Shown: positions 2,888 to 18,650 of the stretch, in pieces
How positions within the stretch are numbered: the first letter of the stretch is position 1
How the letters are laid out: every line of letters begins with the position of its first letter
Source of the DNA: Candidatus Heimdallarchaeum aukensis
Lineage (GTDB): Archaea; Asgardarchaeota; Heimdallarchaeia; Heimdallarchaeales; Heimdallarchaeaceae
Reading direction: 5' to 3'
Assembly: GCA_021513695.1 (NCBI GenBank)
Contig: CP084166.1
Coordinates: forward strand, 1,472,001 to 1,536,000
DNA: 64,000 bases
The notes under the pieces: model-generated
The model's database searches: none
What the model was told of the DNA's origin: nothing
What the model saw: the letters and a program-made list of their open reading frames with translations, nothing else
Position numbers and translations under genes: made by a program

Positions 2888-4057
2888 TCAGTAAGAATCT
2901 ATTAAATCATTTGAGGTGATGTATTGATAACAAAGTTCTGCAGTATTTTCCATTTTTAGAGCCTTAATGAATTTCAGCATCTCTTCCTCAGCTTTTTCGA
3001 TTATTTTTTCTTTTGTTTCTCCTTTTAAATTCTCAATTTTGTTGAAAAATGGTTTCCAAGCCCTTTTCGCATTTGAAGCAAAAACTTTGTGCTCGTCTAC
3101 TCCTTCTTTCATATAGTTCTCAAGTACCCATGCTCGCATCTCTGAATAGAGTTCTGGTTCTTCTTCTTCTAAAACAGAGTAAACTACATTTTGCCAGTGT
3201 GTGCCTATATTTCCTTTGGCTACCGCTCCATGTGGAAATGTTGATTCTATAACATCGATAGGTGTTCCTGTTATTCCATGTTGAGCAATCCTTGTACCAA
3301 ACCCTTCTTCCTTTAGGGCATCAACGATTTCAACTGTTCTTTTCACATTAATTCCCAATTGAGGAATAATGTTTCCTTCTGCGTCAACGTTTACTCCGTG
3401 TTTTGATCCATTTGCGATGGCTAAATAATCTAAAGTTACTCCATGTTCTTTCAAACTTCTAACATAAAAAGTAGCTTCTTCAACTGTTGTATACTCTGTA
3501 ATTCCTATTTCTCCCACTTCACCTTCTAAGCCATAAGCTCTTCCTTTCATCTGTTCTTCTAGAAATTCAAATAATACCAATCCTTTCTTAATAATTTGTT
3601 CTAGTTGTCCCTTTACTTCAGATTGATTTCTGTCAAAAAGGAAAGAGGTATCAATTGCATATCCTGTAAAACCAGCATTTACTCTTGCTTCTATTTCTTT
3701 TTTCACTTGTTCCATTTCTTCATCTGTACCTTTTTTCACTGTAAGATGGTCAGCATGTAACGCATAAGCAAACCATTTTTCTTTTTCTGCTGCGCTTTTA
3801 CATCTATTAGCAAAGAGTTCTGGAGTATAACCTGTGTATCCTCCTGAAATGGACATCTCACTTAATGCTAATTCAAAAATTACAACAGCATTCTTTTTTT
3901 TAGCAGCCCTTAAAACTCCACGAATTACTTCTTCCGTTGCTCTGGGGTTTATTGCAGCTATTATTGAGCAGGTGTTTAATGTTCCTTTTGCAATATAATT
4001 CAAAGGTAGAGGAGATCTTGGATTTTCAAAATAGGTTACTACTTCTTCTTTTGTCAT
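2888..4057 (-). CDS. Class II (metal-dependent) ketose-bisphosphate aldolase family protein (fructose/tagatose-bisphosphate aldolase-like)
   Basis: Class II aldolase motifs are present: 'ALHADHLTV' (DH Zn ligand), 'LAIANGSKHGVN' (HG motif), 'IAQHGITGTPIDVI' (LHGgSG-like). The track ORF starts at 4186, but that 43-aa N-terminal extension is Cys/Arg-rich and overlaps the next gene. The start was therefore placed at the Met of 'MTKEEVVTYFENP' (4057). Confidence 0.65.
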   Translation of the reverse strand: MTKEEVVTYFENPRSPLPLNYIAKGTLNTCSIIAAINPRATEEVIRGVLRAAKKKNAVVIFELALSEMSISGGYTGYTPELFANRCKSAAEKEKWFAYALHADHLTVKKGTDEEMEQVKKEIEARVNAGFTGYAIDTSFLFDRNQSEVKGQLEQIIKKGLVLFEFLEEQMKGRAYGLEGEVGEIGITEYTTVEEATFYVRSLKEHGVTLDYLAIANGSKHGVNVDAEGNIIPQLGINVKRTVEIVDALKEEGFGTRIAQHGITGTPIDVIESTFPHGAVAKGNIGTHWQNVVYSVLEEEEPELYSEMRAWVLENYMKEGVDEHKVFASNAKRAWKPFFNKIENLKGETKEKIIEKAEEEMLKFIKALKMENTAELCYQYITSNDLIDSY

Positions 4058-4125
4058 TCTGAAGAAAAAAATATCATACCAATAATAACATTTTCGATTA
4101 AAAATGAGAAATTGATGAAGAAAAG

Positions 4126-4437
4126 CTAAACAAAAATTACTTCTTCTCGCACCATTGTTTCTACATTTTGCATTTCTTTTGTCCACTCGTGGTAAAGTTT
4201 AGAGATTTCTTCTTCACTACGTAGAAGTTTATTCAAATCTGTGTAATCTTGTAACCAAAAAATCCAGATAGAAGTAGCTCCTATACCTATTCCTCCACTT
4301 GCAGCAACAATTTCCTTTATCCAAGGAGCTTCATTAACAAGTTCGTGAAACTTCCTAACCTTTTTTGACAATTTGTCGCTTATCTCCTCTGGCCAGTCAA
4401 ACATTACAATATAATATATTCCAGGTTTTTTCGACAT
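4126..4437 (-). CDS. Hypothetical small protein (103 aa)
   Basis: ORF without low-complexity bias, located between the aldolase gene and a divergent promoter region. No family confidently recognised. Confidence 0.3.
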   Translation of the reverse strand: MSKKPGIYYIVMFDWPEEISDKLSKKVRKFHELVNEAPWIKEIVAASGGIGIGATSIWIFWLQDYTDLNKLLRSEEEISKLYHEWTKEMQNVETMVREEVIFV

Positions 4438-4574
4438 ACTAGCACCTTTTTGTAAATAATATATAAAACGAACTTAAAAAGAATTCGAAATTATAAGGCA
4501 TATTTTTAATATTGGTATATTTTAATCTAATTTCCTTTAGCAAATATTATTAACATTGAAAAAAACGATTCTCA

Positions 4575-5504
4575 ATGAAGTATGGAATAATTATCCACGG
4601 AGGAGCTTGGGATATTCCTGATAACTTTGTTGATAACCATTTGGATGGAATAAATAACGCTTTAAAACTAGGTTATTCACTTCTTGAAGATAATAATAAT
4701 GCCATTGATATTGCTGAAAAAGTAGTTGTTTTGTTAGAAAATGACCCTACATTTGATGCTGGAAAAGGTTCTTTTTTAAATGCTTTAGGTAAGGTCGAGA
4801 TGGATGCAATAATAGCTACAGATGACTATAAAATTGGTTCTGTTGCAGCCCTAAATAATTATTCTAATCCTATAAAAATTGCAAGAGCGATATATGATTT
4901 TGATGGGGCAGTAATGTTAGTTGGAGAAGGAGCAAAAATTTTTGCTGAGCAGCTTGGGTTCCAACAATGCAAAGTTGAAGATTTACTTGTAGGGAGAGAA
5001 CTTGAGAGATACTTAAAGATAAAAAAAGACGCTACTTTTGTCCCAAAAGATGCTTTTAGACGTAAAACGAGAGGGACTGTTGGTGCAGTTGTTCTAGACA
5101 AAAAAGGGAGAATGGCTGTGGCAGTCTCAACAGGAGGAACACCAAAAAAACCTCCAGGAAGAGTAGGAGATACGCCATTATTTGGAGCAGGAGCATATAT
5201 AGAAAAAGACAAACTAGGTGTTGCTGCGACTGGATACGGTGAAGACCTAATTAAAGCTCTAATCTCGAAGAGGGTGCTAGACTTTTTTGACAGAGGGCTT
5301 TCTCCTCTAGAATCAACAGAACAAGCAATATCTTTTCTTTCTAAAAATGTTCAAGGATTAGGCGGAGTCATTGCTTTAGGAAAAAAGGGAGTAGGGTTAG
5401 CTTTTAATACCCCAAGAATGGCTTTCGGTGTTCAAACAGACGAAATTGATAGCTTTATTGGTATTAATCAAAAAGACAAAGAAGAACTATCGAAACAGCT
5501 GTAG
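4575..5504 (+). CDS. Isoaspartyl peptidase / L-asparaginase (plant-type, Ntn-hydrolase)
   Basis: 309 aa. Begins 'GIIIHGGAW'. The autoproteolytic site 'TRGTVGAVVLDKKG' (G|T nucleophile) and downstream 'GAGAYIE...GVAATGYGEDLI' match the Asparaginase_2 family. Confidence 0.8.
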   Translation: MKYGIIIHGGAWDIPDNFVDNHLDGINNALKLGYSLLEDNNNAIDIAEKVVVLLENDPTFDAGKGSFLNALGKVEMDAIIATDDYKIGSVAALNNYSNPIKIARAIYDFDGAVMLVGEGAKIFAEQLGFQQCKVEDLLVGRELERYLKIKKDATFVPKDAFRRKTRGTVGAVVLDKKGRMAVAVSTGGTPKKPPGRVGDTPLFGAGAYIEKDKLGVAATGYGEDLIKALISKRVLDFFDRGLSPLESTEQAISFLSKNVQGLGGVIALGKKGVGLAFNTPRMAFGVQTDEIDSFIGINQKDKEELSKQL

Positions 5505-12587: not shown

Positions 12588-13067
12588 TATTACAAAACTT
12601 ATATGAACATAGATTTGAAGAGGGTTTTTAAAATTCTTGATAACATATTTTTTGAAAATAAAGAGATAATAACAAAGATTTTAGAAAAAGAAAAGTTGTA
12701 AAAAATCAAACTTTGCAAATATTTATCGATTTATATGAAGATATTTATCTATAATATTTTCAATAGCTTTTTCCATTTTTCCTTTTCCATTTCTCTCATT
12801 TCTTCTTCTTATTTTCTTTTTCTTTAATTTCAGTTTGCTTCTGCAATTTTTGAAACACCCTTTTTTCTCCTTCTGAAAATGTTAATAACCCACACCTTCC
12901 TATATGCTCTACATTATGAGAATAATATGCAGAAAATTGTATTATGATAAAGCAAAAAAGTCATTTCAACATTTTGCAAAAGGTGTAGAATATGTTCATT
13001 AAAACAGCTAAAAAAACATAATAATTTGTTCACATGTTTTATTAATTGACTCATCTACTAGTAATCA

Positions 13068-13625
13068 ATGACTGACAATAACCAAATAACAACAGAAAAA
13101 AAACAGTTTGTTCCTCGTGAAGGATCTATAGAGTATAAAATGCTTTTTGGAACACCAAAAGAACAGAAAAAAATGACTGCAAAGTTTAAATTTGCCAACA
13201 AGTTTTTTACTATTCCTCTATACAAAATTGGGATATTACCACTGTTTGGTGCAGGACAAATTTTTCTTTTACTATACACTAAAGGTCGGAAAACAGGTAA
13301 GATCAGAACTACTCCTCTTGAATATCGAAAAATGGATGGAAAAATGTATATTTTTGCTAGTAGGGGAAACAAGACAAACTGGTTAAGAAATCTAAAAACT
13401 AATCCGGATGATGTGCGAGTAAAGATTGGATTCAAAAAATTTGCTGTAGAGCCAAGAATTCTATCTGTTGAAGAAAGAGCAAAAGTGTTTTATCAATATG
13501 TAAAGAATTACCCAACTGCTTCAAAGGCCTTAATGGGATGGAATCCGAAGGAAGATAAGCTGGAAGAAACAGATTTTTCGTTTATTGCGGAACACATTCC
13601 AGTTGTACAGTTAATTAAAAAATAG
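13068..13625 (+). CDS. Deazaflavin(F420)-dependent nitroreductase-family protein (DUF385/PF04075-like, split-barrel)
   Basis: 'LLLYTKGRKTGKIRTTPLEYRKMDGKMYIFASRGNKTNWLRNLKTNPDDVRVKIG' matches the family consensus 'LLtTtGRKSGkpRttPl.y..dGd.yvvvaS.GG...P.WyrNL.AnP.v.v..g'. Confidence 0.55.
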   Translation: MTDNNQITTEKKQFVPREGSIEYKMLFGTPKEQKKMTAKFKFANKFFTIPLYKIGILPLFGAGQIFLLLYTKGRKTGKIRTTPLEYRKMDGKMYIFASRGNKTNWLRNLKTNPDDVRVKIGFKKFAVEPRILSVEERAKVFYQYVKNYPTASKALMGWNPKEDKLEETDFSFIAEHIPVVQLIKK

Positions 13626-13750
13626 GTTCTAAACTTTTTTTCTGTTATAGAAGATAAGGAAAATAAAATTATTCAATCATAAGGAGGAGTATTTGATCGT
13701 TTATCCATACTTATAGACTAATATAGTCTTTTACCGATTTTATAATGTTT

Positions 13751-13784
13751 CCGAATTATTGTAAAAGTTAAGTGGTGAAAGGAC
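13751..13784 (+). promoter_or_regulatory. Promoter-like conserved motif, copy A (TATA-like TTATAAT plus 27 bp conserved downstream box), about 12 bp upstream of the 13796 gene
   Basis: 'TTATAATgtTTCCGAATTATtGTAAAAgTTaaGT' shares 29/34 positions with copy B at 16405-16438. YTTAWA-type archaeal TATA element; spacing to the 13796 start is consistent with a leaderless or short-leader mRNA. Confidence 0.4.
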
Positions 13785-13795
13785 GAAAATGATAG

Positions 13796-14305
13796 ATGAT
13801 GCTTATGAAACTCAGTGAATATACGTACAATGGGTATGATTATAAAGTAAAATATAGACATCTTGACGACATTTATTATTATAATAACTTTGATGTTGAG
13901 GATACTTGGGATGCTTATGGATATGATCAATATACTGATACTAACCTGGTTTGGCATCATTATACCCCTAGCGAAATAAATGATTTAGAACACGACGTAA
14001 AGGTTCGAAAAATTGCTAATATGATAGCAATTGGTGCTTTGGGCATAATCTTAGCAGCCTTATTAGCCCCTGCTTTTCCTATTTCTGCTGTACTCGTTAC
14101 CATTGGGTTCAGTATACTCGAGGTTCTCATCTCAGAACGATATGACCAATTAGAAGAATTTGTAGAAAATATTAAAGCAGAGAGAGGTGATGGATGGAGC
14201 GTGTATAAAATTAGGGGAGATGACGCCTATTTTGTACCAGGTAAAGAATTCTGGAAAAATCCAATAAATTCCCCAAAATTCATTAAATGTGCAAATATTG
14301 AGTAA
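13796..14305 (+). CDS. Hypothetical membrane protein (169 aa; Tyr/Asp-rich N-terminus, one or two TM helices)
   Basis: Clean ORF with a hydrophobic core 'IAIGALGIILAALLAPAFPISAVLVTIGFSILEVLI'. Lies immediately downstream of promoter motif A and 54 bp upstream of the PQQ-repeat gene. Confidence 0.35.
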   Translation: MMLMKLSEYTYNGYDYKVKYRHLDDIYYYNNFDVEDTWDAYGYDQYTDTNLVWHHYTPSEINDLEHDVKVRKIANMIAIGALGIILAALLAPAFPISAVLVTIGFSILEVLISERYDQLEEFVENIKAERGDGWSVYKIRGDDAYFVPGKEFWKNPINSPKFIKCANIE

Positions 14306-14358
14306 CCATAATTTTTTATCTTTTTCACTTAAAGAAATAAATTGTGTGAGAATAACTC

Positions 14359-16347
14359 ATGAAGTCAATAATTAAAAAAACCAGTATATATATTAAAAAA
14401 TTGTTTCAAACAATTGATGTCCCTCAAGGTAAAATAAGAGGTCTTAAGAAACCTATACTTAACAAATGGTACCATCACTTAATGAGAGTAATTATTATTT
14501 ATTTGATAGCAGCTATTGTGGTCTTTCCTGTTTACTATGGAATAAAAAATGTTGATAATTACCAATATGATAAAAATAGAACATCACCACCAAAATTGAT
14601 ATATTCTTTGGATTTAACAGATTATGCAAATGTACCAAAATATGAATGGTTTAGTGGGGATATTATTTTGCAATTTGACTGCGATAATGACTCTATTAAT
14701 GAGATTATAACTTCGATCATGGCAACTAGCAAAGATGGAAGAAAAAAAGAAACAATTGTGCTCGCATTAGATCCGCTAGAAGGTTCTATTCTTTGGACTT
14801 TCAAAACAAAAACACAAGTGTATCCACCATCTATATTAGATAGTAATAGGGATGGTATTCCAGAACTCATAATTAACTATAGTGAAAATGGGCTAAACGA
14901 AGGATTATGTGCATTAAATGTAAATAATGGTTCAATTCTGTGGAAAAAATATTATGTATCACATTTCAGGTATTATTACATTCTGACAGATATAGAAGGA
15001 GATGGAAAGTATGAGATTGTTTTGACCAGTACAGATTATGGCCATATTAGAATTTATAACGCGTCTAATGGCGATTTTTTATGGTCTTCAAACGAGATTA
15101 TAGAAAATACAATTTATGGTCATATCTTTAGCAATCCTCCAGCTATAGCTGATGTGGATAACGATGGTATAAAGGAAATAATTGCCGTTTCAAATTTTAA
15201 TACCATTTACGCGTTGAATAGTCTTTCAAACTCGATTCTCTGGGAGTTTAATGCAACGTTTTGGACTGTTTATCCTCCAATTGTTGGTGATTTAAATAAT
15301 GACAACAAATCAGAAGTAATTTTTGGATCTTATGATGGATTTGTTTATGTTCTAGATGGAATAAGTGGGTCACTTATTTGGAAATATAATACAAAATCAC
15401 GATTTGGAATAGTGATGAGTCCTTCACTTGGAGACATTAACAGTGATGGAATAATTGATATTATAGTGAGCGACTCCGATAATGTTATTCATGCAATAGA
15501 TGGAAATTCAGGAAGCCGTTTATGGTGTTTTTATGTTGAAAATATATACTCCTCACCCACGATAGGAGACTTCGATGGGGATAAAAGATTAGATGTGGTG
15601 ATAAAAACAGAAGAAAAAATTCATGCAATAAAAGGAAATAATGGTAAATTATTATGGTCAATTCCACTAGATGCTTATTTAATCAGCGCATCAGTACCTA
15701 TTTTTATAGTAGACGTGGACGAGAAGAAAGACATGGAAATAGTCACTTTAGAAGATAAAAAATCGACAAATGATACTTTTCTTAACATTTATGACTTTGA
15801 ATCTGAAAAATACATTCATTCATATTGGAATCCTTTTGGAGGGAATACAGGAAGAACAAACAGCTTGGTGGAAGTAGATAGAGATAATGATGGTTTATCC
15901 AATAAATACGAAAAATATATTGGAACAAAGTATAATGAAAAAGATACAGACAAAGATAAACTACCAGACTGGTACGAGCACATATGGACAAAAACTGACC
16001 CAACAATAGAAGATACAGATAAAAATGGAATCACAGACAAAGAAGAAGACCTAGATGGAGACAAACTGACAAACTATGAAGAACTAAAAAAAGGAACAAA
16101 CCCACTAAAAAAAGATACAGACAAAGATCTAATAAAAGACAATAGAGACCCAAATCCACTATACCCAGAAGAATGGATATTTTATAGTGCCTCTCTTATA
16201 ATTTTCAGCTTCATTACAGTAAAGATTATTTTACGTAAAAAAAGAAAAAGAAAAGGAAATACTACTCCGTATTTTGTTTGCAAATATTGTGGTCATTCTT
16301 CAAAAGAGGAAGATATTAGATACTGCCCAGAATGTGGAAAAAAGTAA
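14359..16347 (+). CDS. Type-II membrane protein: PQQ-like beta-propeller repeats, then thrombospondin-type-3 (D-x-D-x-D) Ca-binding repeats, a C-terminal TM helix and a cytoplasmic zinc ribbon
   Basis: N-terminal signal anchor 'VIIIYLIAAIVVFPVYY'. At least 7 repeats of the PQQ/BamB pattern (e.g. 'SILWTFKT', 'SILWKKYY', 'DFLWSS', 'SILWEFN', 'SLIWKYN', 'SRLWCF', 'KLLWSIPL'), interspersed with 'D.DGD/DINSDG' loops. TSP3-like 'DTDKDKLPDW..DTDKNGITDKEEDLDGDKLTNYEE..DTDKD'. TM 'IFYSASLIIFSFITVKII' and C-terminal 'CKYCGHSSKEEDIRYCPECG'. Confidence 0.6.
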   Translation: MKSIIKKTSIYIKKLFQTIDVPQGKIRGLKKPILNKWYHHLMRVIIIYLIAAIVVFPVYYGIKNVDNYQYDKNRTSPPKLIYSLDLTDYANVPKYEWFSGDIILQFDCDNDSINEIITSIMATSKDGRKKETIVLALDPLEGSILWTFKTKTQVYPPSILDSNRDGIPELIINYSENGLNEGLCALNVNNGSILWKKYYVSHFRYYYILTDIEGDGKYEIVLTSTDYGHIRIYNASNGDFLWSSNEIIENTIYGHIFSNPPAIADVDNDGIKEIIAVSNFNTIYALNSLSNSILWEFNATFWTVYPPIVGDLNNDNKSEVIFGSYDGFVYVLDGISGSLIWKYNTKSRFGIVMSPSLGDINSDGIIDIIVSDSDNVIHAIDGNSGSRLWCFYVENIYSSPTIGDFDGDKRLDVVIKTEEKIHAIKGNNGKLLWSIPLDAYLISASVPIFIVDVDEKKDMEIVTLEDKKSTNDTFLNIYDFESEKYIHSYWNPFGGNTGRTNSLVEVDRDNDGLSNKYEKYIGTKYNEKDTDKDKLPDWYEHIWTKTDPTIEDTDKNGITDKEEDLDGDKLTNYEELKKGTNPLKKDTDKDLIKDNRDPNPLYPEEWIFYSASLIIFSFITVKIILRKKRKRKGNTTPYFVCKYCGHSSKEEDIRYCPECGKK

Positions 16348-16404
16348 CTAACAGCTTCTTAAAAAAAAGCAAGCCTAAACGTTTTTTTCCTTGATTTTTT
16401 ATCC

Positions 16405-16438
16405 TTATAATACTTCCGAATTATCGTAAAATTTATGT
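16405..16438 (+). promoter_or_regulatory. Promoter-like conserved motif, copy B (same 34 bp box as 13751-13784), 58 bp after the PQQ gene stop and 310 bp upstream of AOR
   Basis: 'TTATAATacTTCCGAATTATcGTAAAAtTTatGT'. See copy A; 29/34 identical. Confidence 0.4.
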
Positions 16439-16715
16439 TTGTGGCAGATTTGATTTATTCGGTAATGAGAGTATTACTATTCTCTATCCTCCTCTTTTTA
16501 TTCTGAGCATTTATGTGGTCCAACTCTTTTCTTGGTTCTTTTTGCCTTCTCTTTTTTCTCCCTTCCTTCTTTTTTTGTTCTTGTTTATACTTTCGTTAGG
16601 ACTAAGAACCCGAAGCGTCCTTAATTTCTTTTCCTCTCTTCTTTTATTACTATTTTATTGGGAATACATTCTTTCTCAAGAAAAGAAAATAAAGACTTTG
16701 ACATCTTGAGATAAA

Positions 16716-16722
16716 TTTATAT
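16716..16722 (+). promoter_or_regulatory. Putative TATA box for the AOR gene
   Basis: 'TTTATAT' lies 27 nt upstream of the TTG start at 16749. This spacing is typical of an archaeal TATA-TSS arrangement with a very short or absent leader. Confidence 0.3.
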
Positions 16723-16748
16723 CTCTAGTATGCTTCATTTTTTATACC

Positions 16749-18650
16749 TTGAACAAAAGTAAATTCCCCTACAAAGGATATTGTGGAAAAATAATAGAAG
16801 TGGATTTAACAGAAGAAAAAGTAGAAACAAAAGATCTTGAGGTAGAAGTAGCTGAACAGTACATAGGAGGAAGAGGGCTAGCTATCCGCTATCTAATTAA
16901 AAATCTCAAACCAAAAATTGACCCCCTGGGAGAAGAAAATATACTGGTAATAAGCACGGGGCCGCTAACAGGCACTCTAGCTCCTTCTTCAGCAAGATAT
17001 ACAATAGCAACAAAATCTCCACTCACGGGAGTAATAGGCTACGCTAACTCGGGAGGACATTTTGCCCCAGAGTTAAAATACGCAGGCTATGACGCCATAA
17101 TAATAAAAGGAAAAGCGAAAAGTCCAAAATATTTGCTTATTCAAGATGAGAAAGTAAGTATAGAAGATGCTTCCCACTTATGGGGAAAGGATACTTGGGA
17201 AACAGATAAAATACTGAAAAGTGAGTATGAATCTTCTAATTTACAGATTCTGTCTATTGGTCAAGCTGGAGAGAATAAGGTCTTATATGCTGCAATAATG
17301 AATAATTTGTCTAGAGCTGCAGCTAGGACTGGTGTTGGAGCTGTTATGGGGTCAAAAAATCTCAAGGCCATTGCTGTTTCTGGTTCAGGATTTGTCGAGG
17401 TACATAACCCTGAGGAATTTATTGAATTTACTAATAAAACATTAGAAAAGATATATGATGACCCTGCTTATCCAAGTTTATCGGATTATGGGACAAGTTT
17501 TTTAGTTGATTTAGCCTATTTAGGAGGAGGATTAGCTACAAACAACAACCAGTTTGGTGTATTTGATGGTTATGATGGTATTTCAGCAGAAACATTTTAT
17601 GAAAAATATAAGGTGAAATCAGATAGTTGTTTTGCATGCCCGATACATTGTGGGAAGTATTCAAAAGTGGAAGAAGGAAAATATGCAGGCATTGAAGGTG
17701 GAAGTCCAGAATATGAATCAATTGTTTGTTTAGGGTCAAAATGTGGCATAGGAGATTTAGCTACAATAATCTATGCTAATGATCTATGTAATAGATATGG
17801 GTTAGACACAATATCATTGGGTGACACAGTTGCTTTTGCTATGGAAGCGTATGAAAAAGGAGTTCTAAAAAAAGAAGATACAGATGGAATTGATTTAACA
17901 TGGGGAAACCAAGATGCACTAATTGAGCTAATCCATAAAATAGCTAGAAGAGAGGGATTTGGAGATCTATTAGCAGATGGAACAAAAATAGCTTCAGAAA
18001 AAATCAATAAGGGATCAGAAGAATATGCATTACATGTTAAAGGTATGGAACCACCAGCATATGATGTAAGAACAGCGAAAGCTTTTGGTTTAGGTTGGGC
18101 TACAGCTAACAGAGGAGCAGACCATTTATCTGCATTACCTAATTTCGAATTGTTAGGTTATCCAAAAGAGAAAGGTGTAGAGTGGTTTGGTTCAGAAAAA
18201 GCAGTAGACCCTTATGCTTGGGAAAGTAAAGCAAGAATGACAGTTTGGCATGAAAATTTTGGCGCTGTAGTAGATTCCGCAGAGATGTGTAAATATACTT
18301 GTTTTTCAGCTTATGCAGTAAAACCAGACGATATGACCAAGTTTTTGTCTTATGCAACAGGAATGGAACTTAGCGAAGAAAAAGTAATGGAGATTGGAGA
18401 GAGAATTTACAATCTAGAAAGATTGTTCAATGAAAGAGAAGGAAAAGCTAAAGATTCTGATTATTTACCTAAAAGATTTACAGAAGAACCTTTGCCCAGT
18501 GGCCCAGCTAAAGGACAAGTAGTAGAACTGGATAAAATGTTAAAAGAATACTATGAAATAAGAGGATGGGTTAACGGTGCTCCAAAAAAGGAAAAACTGA
18601 AAGAACTGGGAATAGAACAATTTGCAACAAAAAAGGAGGAGGAAAAATGA
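16749..18650 (+). CDS. aor: Aldehyde:ferredoxin oxidoreductase (tungsten-containing AOR family)
   Basis: 633 aa. N-terminal 'YCGKIIEVDLTEEKVET..YIGGRGLAIRYL', 'GPLTGT', the Fe-S ligand region 'CFACPIHCG', 'ATANRGADH' and C-terminal 'YYEIRGW' match the AOR family throughout. The only available start is TTG at 16749 (an in-frame stop lies at 16707). Confidence 0.9.
   Translation: MNKSKFPYKGYCGKIIEVDLTEEKVETKDLEVEVAEQYIGGRGLAIRYLIKNLKPKIDPLGEENILVISTGPLTGTLAPSSARYTIATKSPLTGVIGYANSGGHFAPELKYAGYDAIIIKGKAKSPKYLLIQDEKVSIEDASHLWGKDTWETDKILKSEYESSNLQILSIGQAGENKVLYAAIMNNLSRAAARTGVGAVMGSKNLKAIAVSGSGFVEVHNPEEFIEFTNKTLEKIYDDPAYPSLSDYGTSFLVDLAYLGGGLATNNNQFGVFDGYDGISAETFYEKYKVKSDSCFACPIHCGKYSKVEEGKYAGIEGGSPEYESIVCLGSKCGIGDLATIIYANDLCNRYGLDTISLGDTVAFAMEAYEKGVLKKEDTDGIDLTWGNQDALIELIHKIARREGFGDLLADGTKIASEKINKGSEEYALHVKGMEPPAYDVRTAKAFGLGWATANRGADHLSALPNFELLGYPKEKGVEWFGSEKAVDPYAWESKARMTVWHENFGAVVDSAEMCKYTCFSAYAVKPDDMTKFLSYATGMELSEEKVMEIGERIYNLERLFNEREGKAKDSDYLPKRFTEEPLPSGPAKGQVVELDKMLKEYYEIRGWVNGAPKKEKLKELGIEQFATKKEEEK

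Follow-up and report, generated by a model that had tools for sequence, protein, structure and literature searches.

Two promoter-like boxes around a membrane-protein cassette of Candidatus Heimdallarchaeum aukensis as probable left-end relics of an ISH3-like insertion sequence

In the genome of the Asgard archaeon Candidatus Heimdallarchaeum aukensis, two nearly identical 34-bp boxes, each containing the promoter-like string TTATAAT, bracket a cassette of two genes that encode a predicted membrane protein and an FG-GAP/PQQ beta-propeller protein, and the second box lies upstream of the gene for the tungsten enzyme AOR. The window analysed here is the 64,000-nucleotide stretch of contig CP084166.1 from position 1,472,001 to 1,536,000 (positions below count from its first letter; L numbers denote the other loci compared), and the question it raises is what these two boxes are. 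A first-pass annotation of the window had offered three answers: an operator shared by the cassette and AOR, a duplicated promoter marking the cassette as an inserted module, or a small repeat family. The last is essentially right, with the left terminus of a transposable element as the repeated unit: the boxes are very probably vestigial left ends (the left inverted repeat, IRL, and the leader that adjoins it) of an ISH3-like DDE insertion sequence (IS) active in Heimdallarchaeum.

Box A (TTATAATGTTTCCGAATTATTGTAAAAGTTAAGT) occupies positions 13740-13773 and box B (TTATAATACTTCCGAATTATCGTAAAATTTATGT) positions 16405-16438, in direct orientation and with 29 of 34 nucleotides identical. Direct comparison thus bears out the pair as first described, and box B stands where it had been placed; box A had been put at 13751-13784, a shift of 11 bp from its real position. 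In an all-against-all comparison of the 64 kb, A and B are the only direct pair of 34-mers with at least 29 identities, a level that 12 second-order Markov simulations never reached (they gave on average 0.25 pairs with 28 or more identities, and an estimate of about 0.04 pairs at 29/34 or better per window); the drop to background similarity that had been named as an outcome that would speak against the pair was not seen. The window has two exact copies of the 18-nt core that the boxes share, TTCCGAATTATYGTAAAA, at 13749-13766 and 16414-16431; a third is absent there even with up to 3 mismatches allowed.

The same core leads to the rest of the family. A scan with TTCCGAATTATNGTAAAA through one genome per prokaryotic species, in which an exact 17-of-18-nt core was needed, gave 102 matches: six in Ca. 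Heimdallarchaeum endolithica PR6 and one in each other genome with a match. Of the six, one is orthologous to box A and five are IS left ends (four of full elements and one of a truncated element); five of the PR6 loci have identical sequence downstream of the core. The PR6 block that overlaps the window (L031, 8 kb) is 94.6% identical to it, and positions 13000-17200 are about 99% identical apart from rearranged segments. A genome-wide search for the core had been suggested as a way of defining a regulon; the motif does recur, but in PR6 its recurrences other than the box A ortholog are IS ends, and no host-gene regulon was found by a scan that needs the exact 17-of-18-nt core and that diverged sites escape.

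Compared with the window by blastn, the IS matches it at two places only, and these are box A (IS 1-53 with 13742-13794, 79% identity, E 6e-7) and box B (IS 1-31 with 16407-16437, 94% identity, E 3e-5). A gapped alignment extends the box A match to IS position 57, through the transposase ATG, which pairs with ATG 13796 of the first cassette gene. The blastn comparison found no transposase remnant in the window, and no 18-mer match to the IS right end is present there with up to 3 mismatches; matches to the right-end 11-mer are at chance level (15 observed, 8.7 expected). Because the window has neither a right end nor a transposase, we consider the boxes to be solo left-end relics: each is homologous to the terminus of a multi-copy IS, with no transposase and no partner end adjoining. 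A string resembling the right inverted repeat, AGGAAATACTA (16254-16264), was considered as the right end of a cargo-carrying element beginning at box A and was rejected; it is largely ancestral FG-GAP coding sequence, and the homolog in L103 has AAGGAAACGTTA there. The string TTATAAT, previously read as a TATA-like element, is instead the junction between an AT-rich TTA flank and the IS tip, which is TAATGT in box A and TAATAC in box B. The TAATAC tip and the ATTATTG variant of box A are both present in an internally deleted IS copy, L116.

The intact IS is 1217-1218 bp long, starts with TAGTACTTCCGAATTATCG, ends with AGTTATTGCGGAAGTACTA, and has 11-bp perfect terminal inverted repeats (TAGTACTTCCG; the element runs TAGTACTTCCG...CGGAAGTACTA). 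By pairwise comparison the full copies in PR6 are 96-100% identical. Target duplications are AT-rich and 6 bp long (TAATAT, ATAAAT and TTCTAT, and TTAGAT at a short derivative), with one of 7 bp in L015. The single open reading frame (ORF) encodes a 381-aa transposase and has its ATG 55 nt from the left tip. This protein matches Pfam DDE_Tnp_1 (38.6 bits, cut-off 23), its top NCBIfam model is ISH3 NF033541 (E 5.4e-39, profile 2-298/298, at 134 bits against a curated cut-off of 225), and the stretch YCHRWGIETSYRLLK of its translation fits Y(2)R(3)E(3)R, the published ISH3 signature. De Palmenaer et al. (2008, PMC2266710) describe that archaeal, IS4-related DDE family as 1225-1500 bp long, with CRGT ends, direct repeats of 4-5 bp and the YREK motif in the variant form Y-(2)-R-(3)-E-(3)-(R). 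The element resembles its members in having one DDE transposase with ISH3 as best model over the full profile, a length of about 1.2 kb, short inverted repeats, short AT-rich duplications and an archaeal host; it differs from them in its sub-cut-off score and Asgard host, and in being narrowly outside the published ranges for length, ends (TAGT) and target duplications, and because of these last three features we call it ISH3-like. The window differs further in having end fragments only and no whole IS. H. aukensis encodes a transposase of the same cluster as the 381-aa protein. For these two genomes 11 transposase/integrase families with up to 27 copies have been reported (Wu et al. 2022, PMC8813620), and we found no description of IS ends or relics in that paper. 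What was previously available only as transposase counts is thus given here, for one Heimdallarchaeum IS family, with its ends, its target duplication and its short derivatives.

These derivatives lack a transposase. One of 110 bp in PR6 (L109:196-305) consists of about 85 bp of the left and about 25 bp of the right end, flanked by ATAAAA/ATAAAG, and alignment of L109:1-900 with window positions 3900-4700 locates its empty target site in H. aukensis (Table 1). This 110-bp insertion polymorphism between sister species shows that the IS family was recently active. Other transposase-less derivatives, both of them in metagenome sequence, measure 108 bp (L117) and 241+303 bp (L116, with the TAATAC tip), and further full copies lie on metagenome contigs L119 and L121. 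All metagenome core matches are IS copies or transposase-less derivatives except the unrelated L118 and L122, which have the core and no IS tip. Single core matches in L003, L009, L064, L077, L087, bacteria and the viral contigs L126/L127 were set aside as chance, there being one per genome and no IS tip or downstream similarity. Two of them have some extra flanking resemblance, with TTAGTC ahead of the core in an uncultured archaeon (L009:5573-5600, minus strand) and TTTTATAATA ahead of it in a viral contig (L126:1206-1233, minus strand); among about 110 matches inspected, this was judged to be chance.

The genes around the boxes were correctly placed from the start, namely the ORF at 13796, the ORF at 14359, and AOR with its own, closer TATA. 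Their order is F420H2-quinone-reductase-like gene, box A, 169-aa ORF, FG-GAP ORF, box B, 310 bp of non-coding DNA, AOR and ferredoxin (Table 1). The 169-aa protein, which matched no Pfam or NCBIfam family, forms one 90%-identity cluster among 5.8 billion proteins, with all members from Heimdallarchaeum; it is an exact match to H. aukensis UJG42072.1, which GenBank labels "small integral membrane protein 12". The 662-aa FG-GAP protein has TSP3 repeats, a C-terminal transmembrane helix and a zinc ribbon. The AOR gene lies 310 bp past box B and has its own TATA-like element, AAATTTATAT, at 16713-16722. The spacer after box B is not the decayed body of an IS, as it has no blastn similarity to the IS even at E 10. 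A riboswitch or other non-coding RNA between box B and AOR was likewise rejected: Rfam gave no match, whether at the gathering threshold or with E relaxed to 1, and the fold z-score of the spacer is only -1.9.

Table 1. Features of the window and of the corresponding locus in relatives
Feature	Position	Strand	Remarks
Empty target site for the PR6 110-bp derivative	4098..4099	.	L109:1-900 aligned to window 3900-4700
F420H2-quinone-reductase-like gene	13068-13625		
Lineage-specific island	13681..16709	.	Between F420H2-type gene and AOR promoter; holds both boxes, two cassette genes and spacer
Box A	13740..13798	+	Probable solo left-end IS relic; 34-mer 13740-13773, then IS 5' leader up to ATG 13796
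Degraded terminal repeat of box A, TAATGTTTCCG	13743-13753	+	Core at 13749-13766
169-aa predicted membrane protein, first cassette gene	13796..14305	+	Orphan, Heimdallarchaeum only
662-aa FG-GAP/PQQ beta-propeller protein, second cassette gene	14359..16347	+	Pfam matches
Box B (TAATACTTCCGAATTATCGTAAAATTTATG)	16405..16438	+	Probable 31-bp stub of IS left end; homology ends at 16437
Spacer, box B to right edge of island	16439..16709	+	Pyrimidine-rich, non-coding, without IS homology
AOR gene with its own TATA-like element	16713..18650	+	AOR 16749-18650; Pfam AFOR_N, AFOR_C
L124/L125			AOR protein 78% identical to window; 69 bp between F420H2-type gene and AOR, no cassette
L123			AOR protein 95% identical to window; different 1.65-kb insert with two unrelated genes, no box

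How might such relics have come to look like promoters? Transposase promoters commonly overlap the left terminal repeat in many ISs. In the intact IS considered here, the TATA-like sequence at the junction and/or an internal CCGAA-TTATCGTAAAA would be the transposase promoter, overlapping the terminal repeat that the transposase would bind; as insertion is into TATA-like hexamers, the junction would resemble a TATA box in every IS copy. The internal CCGAA-TTATCGTAAAA is loosely like the local consensus for the B recognition element (BRE) and TATA box, cGAAAG-TTTATAWA, ahead of other genes in the window. Box A has kept IS positions 1-57, with the terminal repeat, the putative promoter region and the leader now standing ahead of the cassette, so that the 169-aa gene starts where the transposase gene would, and box B has kept positions 1-31 only. 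The first-pass annotation had noted that the similarity extends across the interval from TATA to transcription start, where archaeal repressors usually bind; the pattern fits a terminal repeat overlapping a transposase promoter rather than a repressor site.

Whether box A still gives a promoter and 5' leader to the 169-aa and FG-GAP genes we regard, from its sequence, as about evenly balanced; if it does, it would be a clean archaeal case in which a cargo gene has taken over the promoter and leader of an IS, useful though unsurprising. Within this stretch a Shine-Dalgarno-like GGTGA (13775-13779) is found 9 nt ahead of an ATG at 13789, which opens a 9-codon ORF, MIDDAYETQ*, out of frame with and overlapping the annotated start of the 169-aa gene (13796). 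Box B is rather likely a decaying, non-functional stub. A bolder proposal, that the IS left end is a portable promoter-operator through which the transposase autoregulates, so that an exapted box A would be repressible in trans by the transposase of intact copies (and perhaps box B too, with its 23-aa hydrophobic ORF or the AOR leader), seems to us unlikely; were it true, expression of a variable surface-protein cassette would be coupled to transposon activity in an Asgard archaeon. The predicted 23-codon ORF, MFVADLIYSVMRVLLFSILLFLF*, lies at 16435-16506 and begins at the end of box B, and L120 has a V3G change in MFVADLIYSVMRVLLFSILLFLF.

The first alternative to be weighed is that the boxes are copies of each other made when the cassette arrived, and so mark the ends of the module. 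They would be either att-like repeats, produced when a circular element with one IS-end-like site integrated in the Campbell manner, or the outcome of a local promoter duplication. Their direct orientation is what this would predict, two relics within 2.7 kb are otherwise odd, and the segment between the flanking genes is indeed an insertion relative to L124. Since L123 aligns with the window up to 13680 and again from 16710, positions 13681-16709 form a lineage-specific island, and the segment between the boxes (13785-16404), whose loss from related genomes had been suggested as a check, is absent in L124/L125 and replaced in L123. The island edges, however, do not match the boxes, which lie inside them by 60 bp (A) and about 270 bp (B). 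The FG-GAP module shared with L103 (14276-16351) leaves out both boxes as well: the L103 homolog is 76% identical, in an unrelated context and without a box, and upstream of it only the last 30 or so nucleotides of the 169-aa gene remain. Finally, in L120, the one deletion variant found, the loss of 13958-16174 left both boxes in place; the breaks are at 13957/16175 (with 2-nt microhomology at the junction, which is out of frame). Judged from these alignments, the cassette is an insertion and the boxes are not its attachment sites; the notion of an inserted module thus survives for the island, which is missing or replaced in relatives, and fails for the boxes as its borders.

Nor do the boxes themselves look like copies of one another. 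Both have G>A at IS position 3 and the TTA flank, but they keep different lengths of the IS (57 nt in A, 31 nt in B), the identity of each to IS copies (79-94%) is higher than their 85% identity to each other demands, and the TAATAC tip is a subfamily trait. As the tip variants of both boxes occur in L116, the features common to A and B need no copying of one from the other, and we hold mutual copying to be quite improbable. More generally, the comparison of relatives suggests that the slot upstream of the AOR TATA is a recurrent integration or replacement hot spot in Heimdallarchaeaceae, and we flag it as a strain-variable cargo site. Depending on the genome, the slot ahead of this TATA is empty (L124:6932-7000), holds a 162-aa and 299-aa gene pair (L123:5310-6961), or holds the 169-aa and FG-GAP pair. 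The 162-aa gene of L123 was considered as a diverged homolog of the 169-aa gene and rejected (BLASTP E 0.75).

The second alternative is the shared host operator or regulon, in which a transcription factor would act at both boxes and reach AOR through a long leader or a small RNA from box B. Both boxes are directly downstream of a TATA-like sequence, ccGATTTTATAAT before box A resembles the local promoter consensus of other genes in the window, and box A is invariant in all strains compared (PR6, L110-L114 and L120). On the other hand, the remaining PR6 core sites, and most metagenome matches likewise, are IS left ends, and box B carries the IS tip TAATAC, for which a host operator gives no reason. 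Box B is not under constraint: strains with about 99% identity differ by three substitutions in its core (T>G and T>A in PR6, giving CGgAAAAtA, and G>A in L111/L112, giving TTCCaAAT), and it lies in the most variable part of the intergenic region. A comparison of four strains over 16348-16760 places nine variable sites in about the first 97 bp (from the gene end to just past box B) and two in the roughly 316 bp that follow, which are pyrimidine-rich spacer; this spacer is conserved at the level of coding DNA. The TATA region of AOR (16713-16722) is outside the island and is conserved in L123 and L124, both of which are without boxes, and no Rfam family or strong structure is present past box B. 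With the other PR6 copies being IS ends, the core of box B varying and relatives having no boxes, a shared host operator is not supported by these sequences, and we rate it as very improbable; a tempting lead to a tungsten-AOR and surface-protein regulon is thereby removed. A chance likeness of two AT-rich promoter regions, in a genome of about 32% G+C where low-complexity near-matches at 25-27/34 are common, can be dismissed, because both boxes, already the only pair at their level of identity and unequalled in simulation, are independently homologous to the IS terminus.

Several points nevertheless weigh against the reading of the boxes as IS left-end relics. Two solo left ends in the same orientation stand 2.7 kb apart with none in the remaining 61 kb, and this odd clustering hints at a linked origin. 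The reading also requires the loss of all but the first 31-57 bp of the element, and promoter activity of either box is putative. The strains compared are so similar (about 99% identity) that the invariance of box A says little about selection. The search for further copies covered PR6, with the exact 17-of-18-nt core, and of H. aukensis the window, so that diverged solo boxes upstream of other host genes would have been missed.

Transposase promoters can lie within left inverted repeats, and IS ends can drive adjoining genes. The general biology of such end-embedded promoters was reportedly reviewed by Mahillon and Chandler in 1998. Box A resembles such cases in being a terminal fragment, with a putative transposase promoter and leader, directly upstream of a gene, and in that its conserved stretch follows the TATA-like element up to the expected start, the place at which the promoter would be overlapped by a repeat for transposase binding. 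It differs in that the classic cases are bacterial -35/-10 hybrids and not archaeal BRE/TATA promoters (the promoter here being putative), and in that the promoter kept when the transposase gene was lost would be one that faces inward, not outward. Miniature inverted-repeat transposable elements (MITEs) are short transposase-less IS derivatives such as the Sulfolobus SM elements. The same IS family has derivatives of this kind (the 108-110-bp ones in L117 and at L109:196-305, with the same box), unlike boxes A and B, which have no matching right end in reach and therefore are not MITEs and could not be mobilised by standard two-ended transposition; for the pair taken together, direct orientation and the absent right end likewise led us to reject a MITE or mobile insertion cassette. 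IS-end fossils in a strain-variable island are an ordinary kind of genomic fossil, here of a new ISH3-like IS in an Asgard archaeon.

The FG-GAP gene between the boxes is intact only in the genome of the window, and several distinct rearrangements of this one surface-protein gene are present among strains that are about 99% identical. PR6 (locus L109:10564-12775) and L110 have an inversion of 14717-15337 with 5-bp microhomology (ATCAT/ATGAT), the metagenome-assembled genomes L111-L113 have an inversion of approximately 15166-16183 (L111:7348-8393), and contig L114 ends exactly at 15165. The boxes are not involved in the breakpoints of these variants, and no inverted repeats beyond the microhomology of about 5 bp were found at them. 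In PR6 a 375-bp insertion (L109:11543-11917) replaces window positions 15338-15488; its ends are perfect 11-bp inverted repeats (TTTTACGTAAT...ATTACGTAAAA), its interior is comparatively rich in G+C, and neither an Rfam match nor another copy among the loci compared was found for it. It is possibly an unrelated element that lacks a transposase. Its palindrome TTTTACGTAAAA is also present in the window at about 16229-16240.

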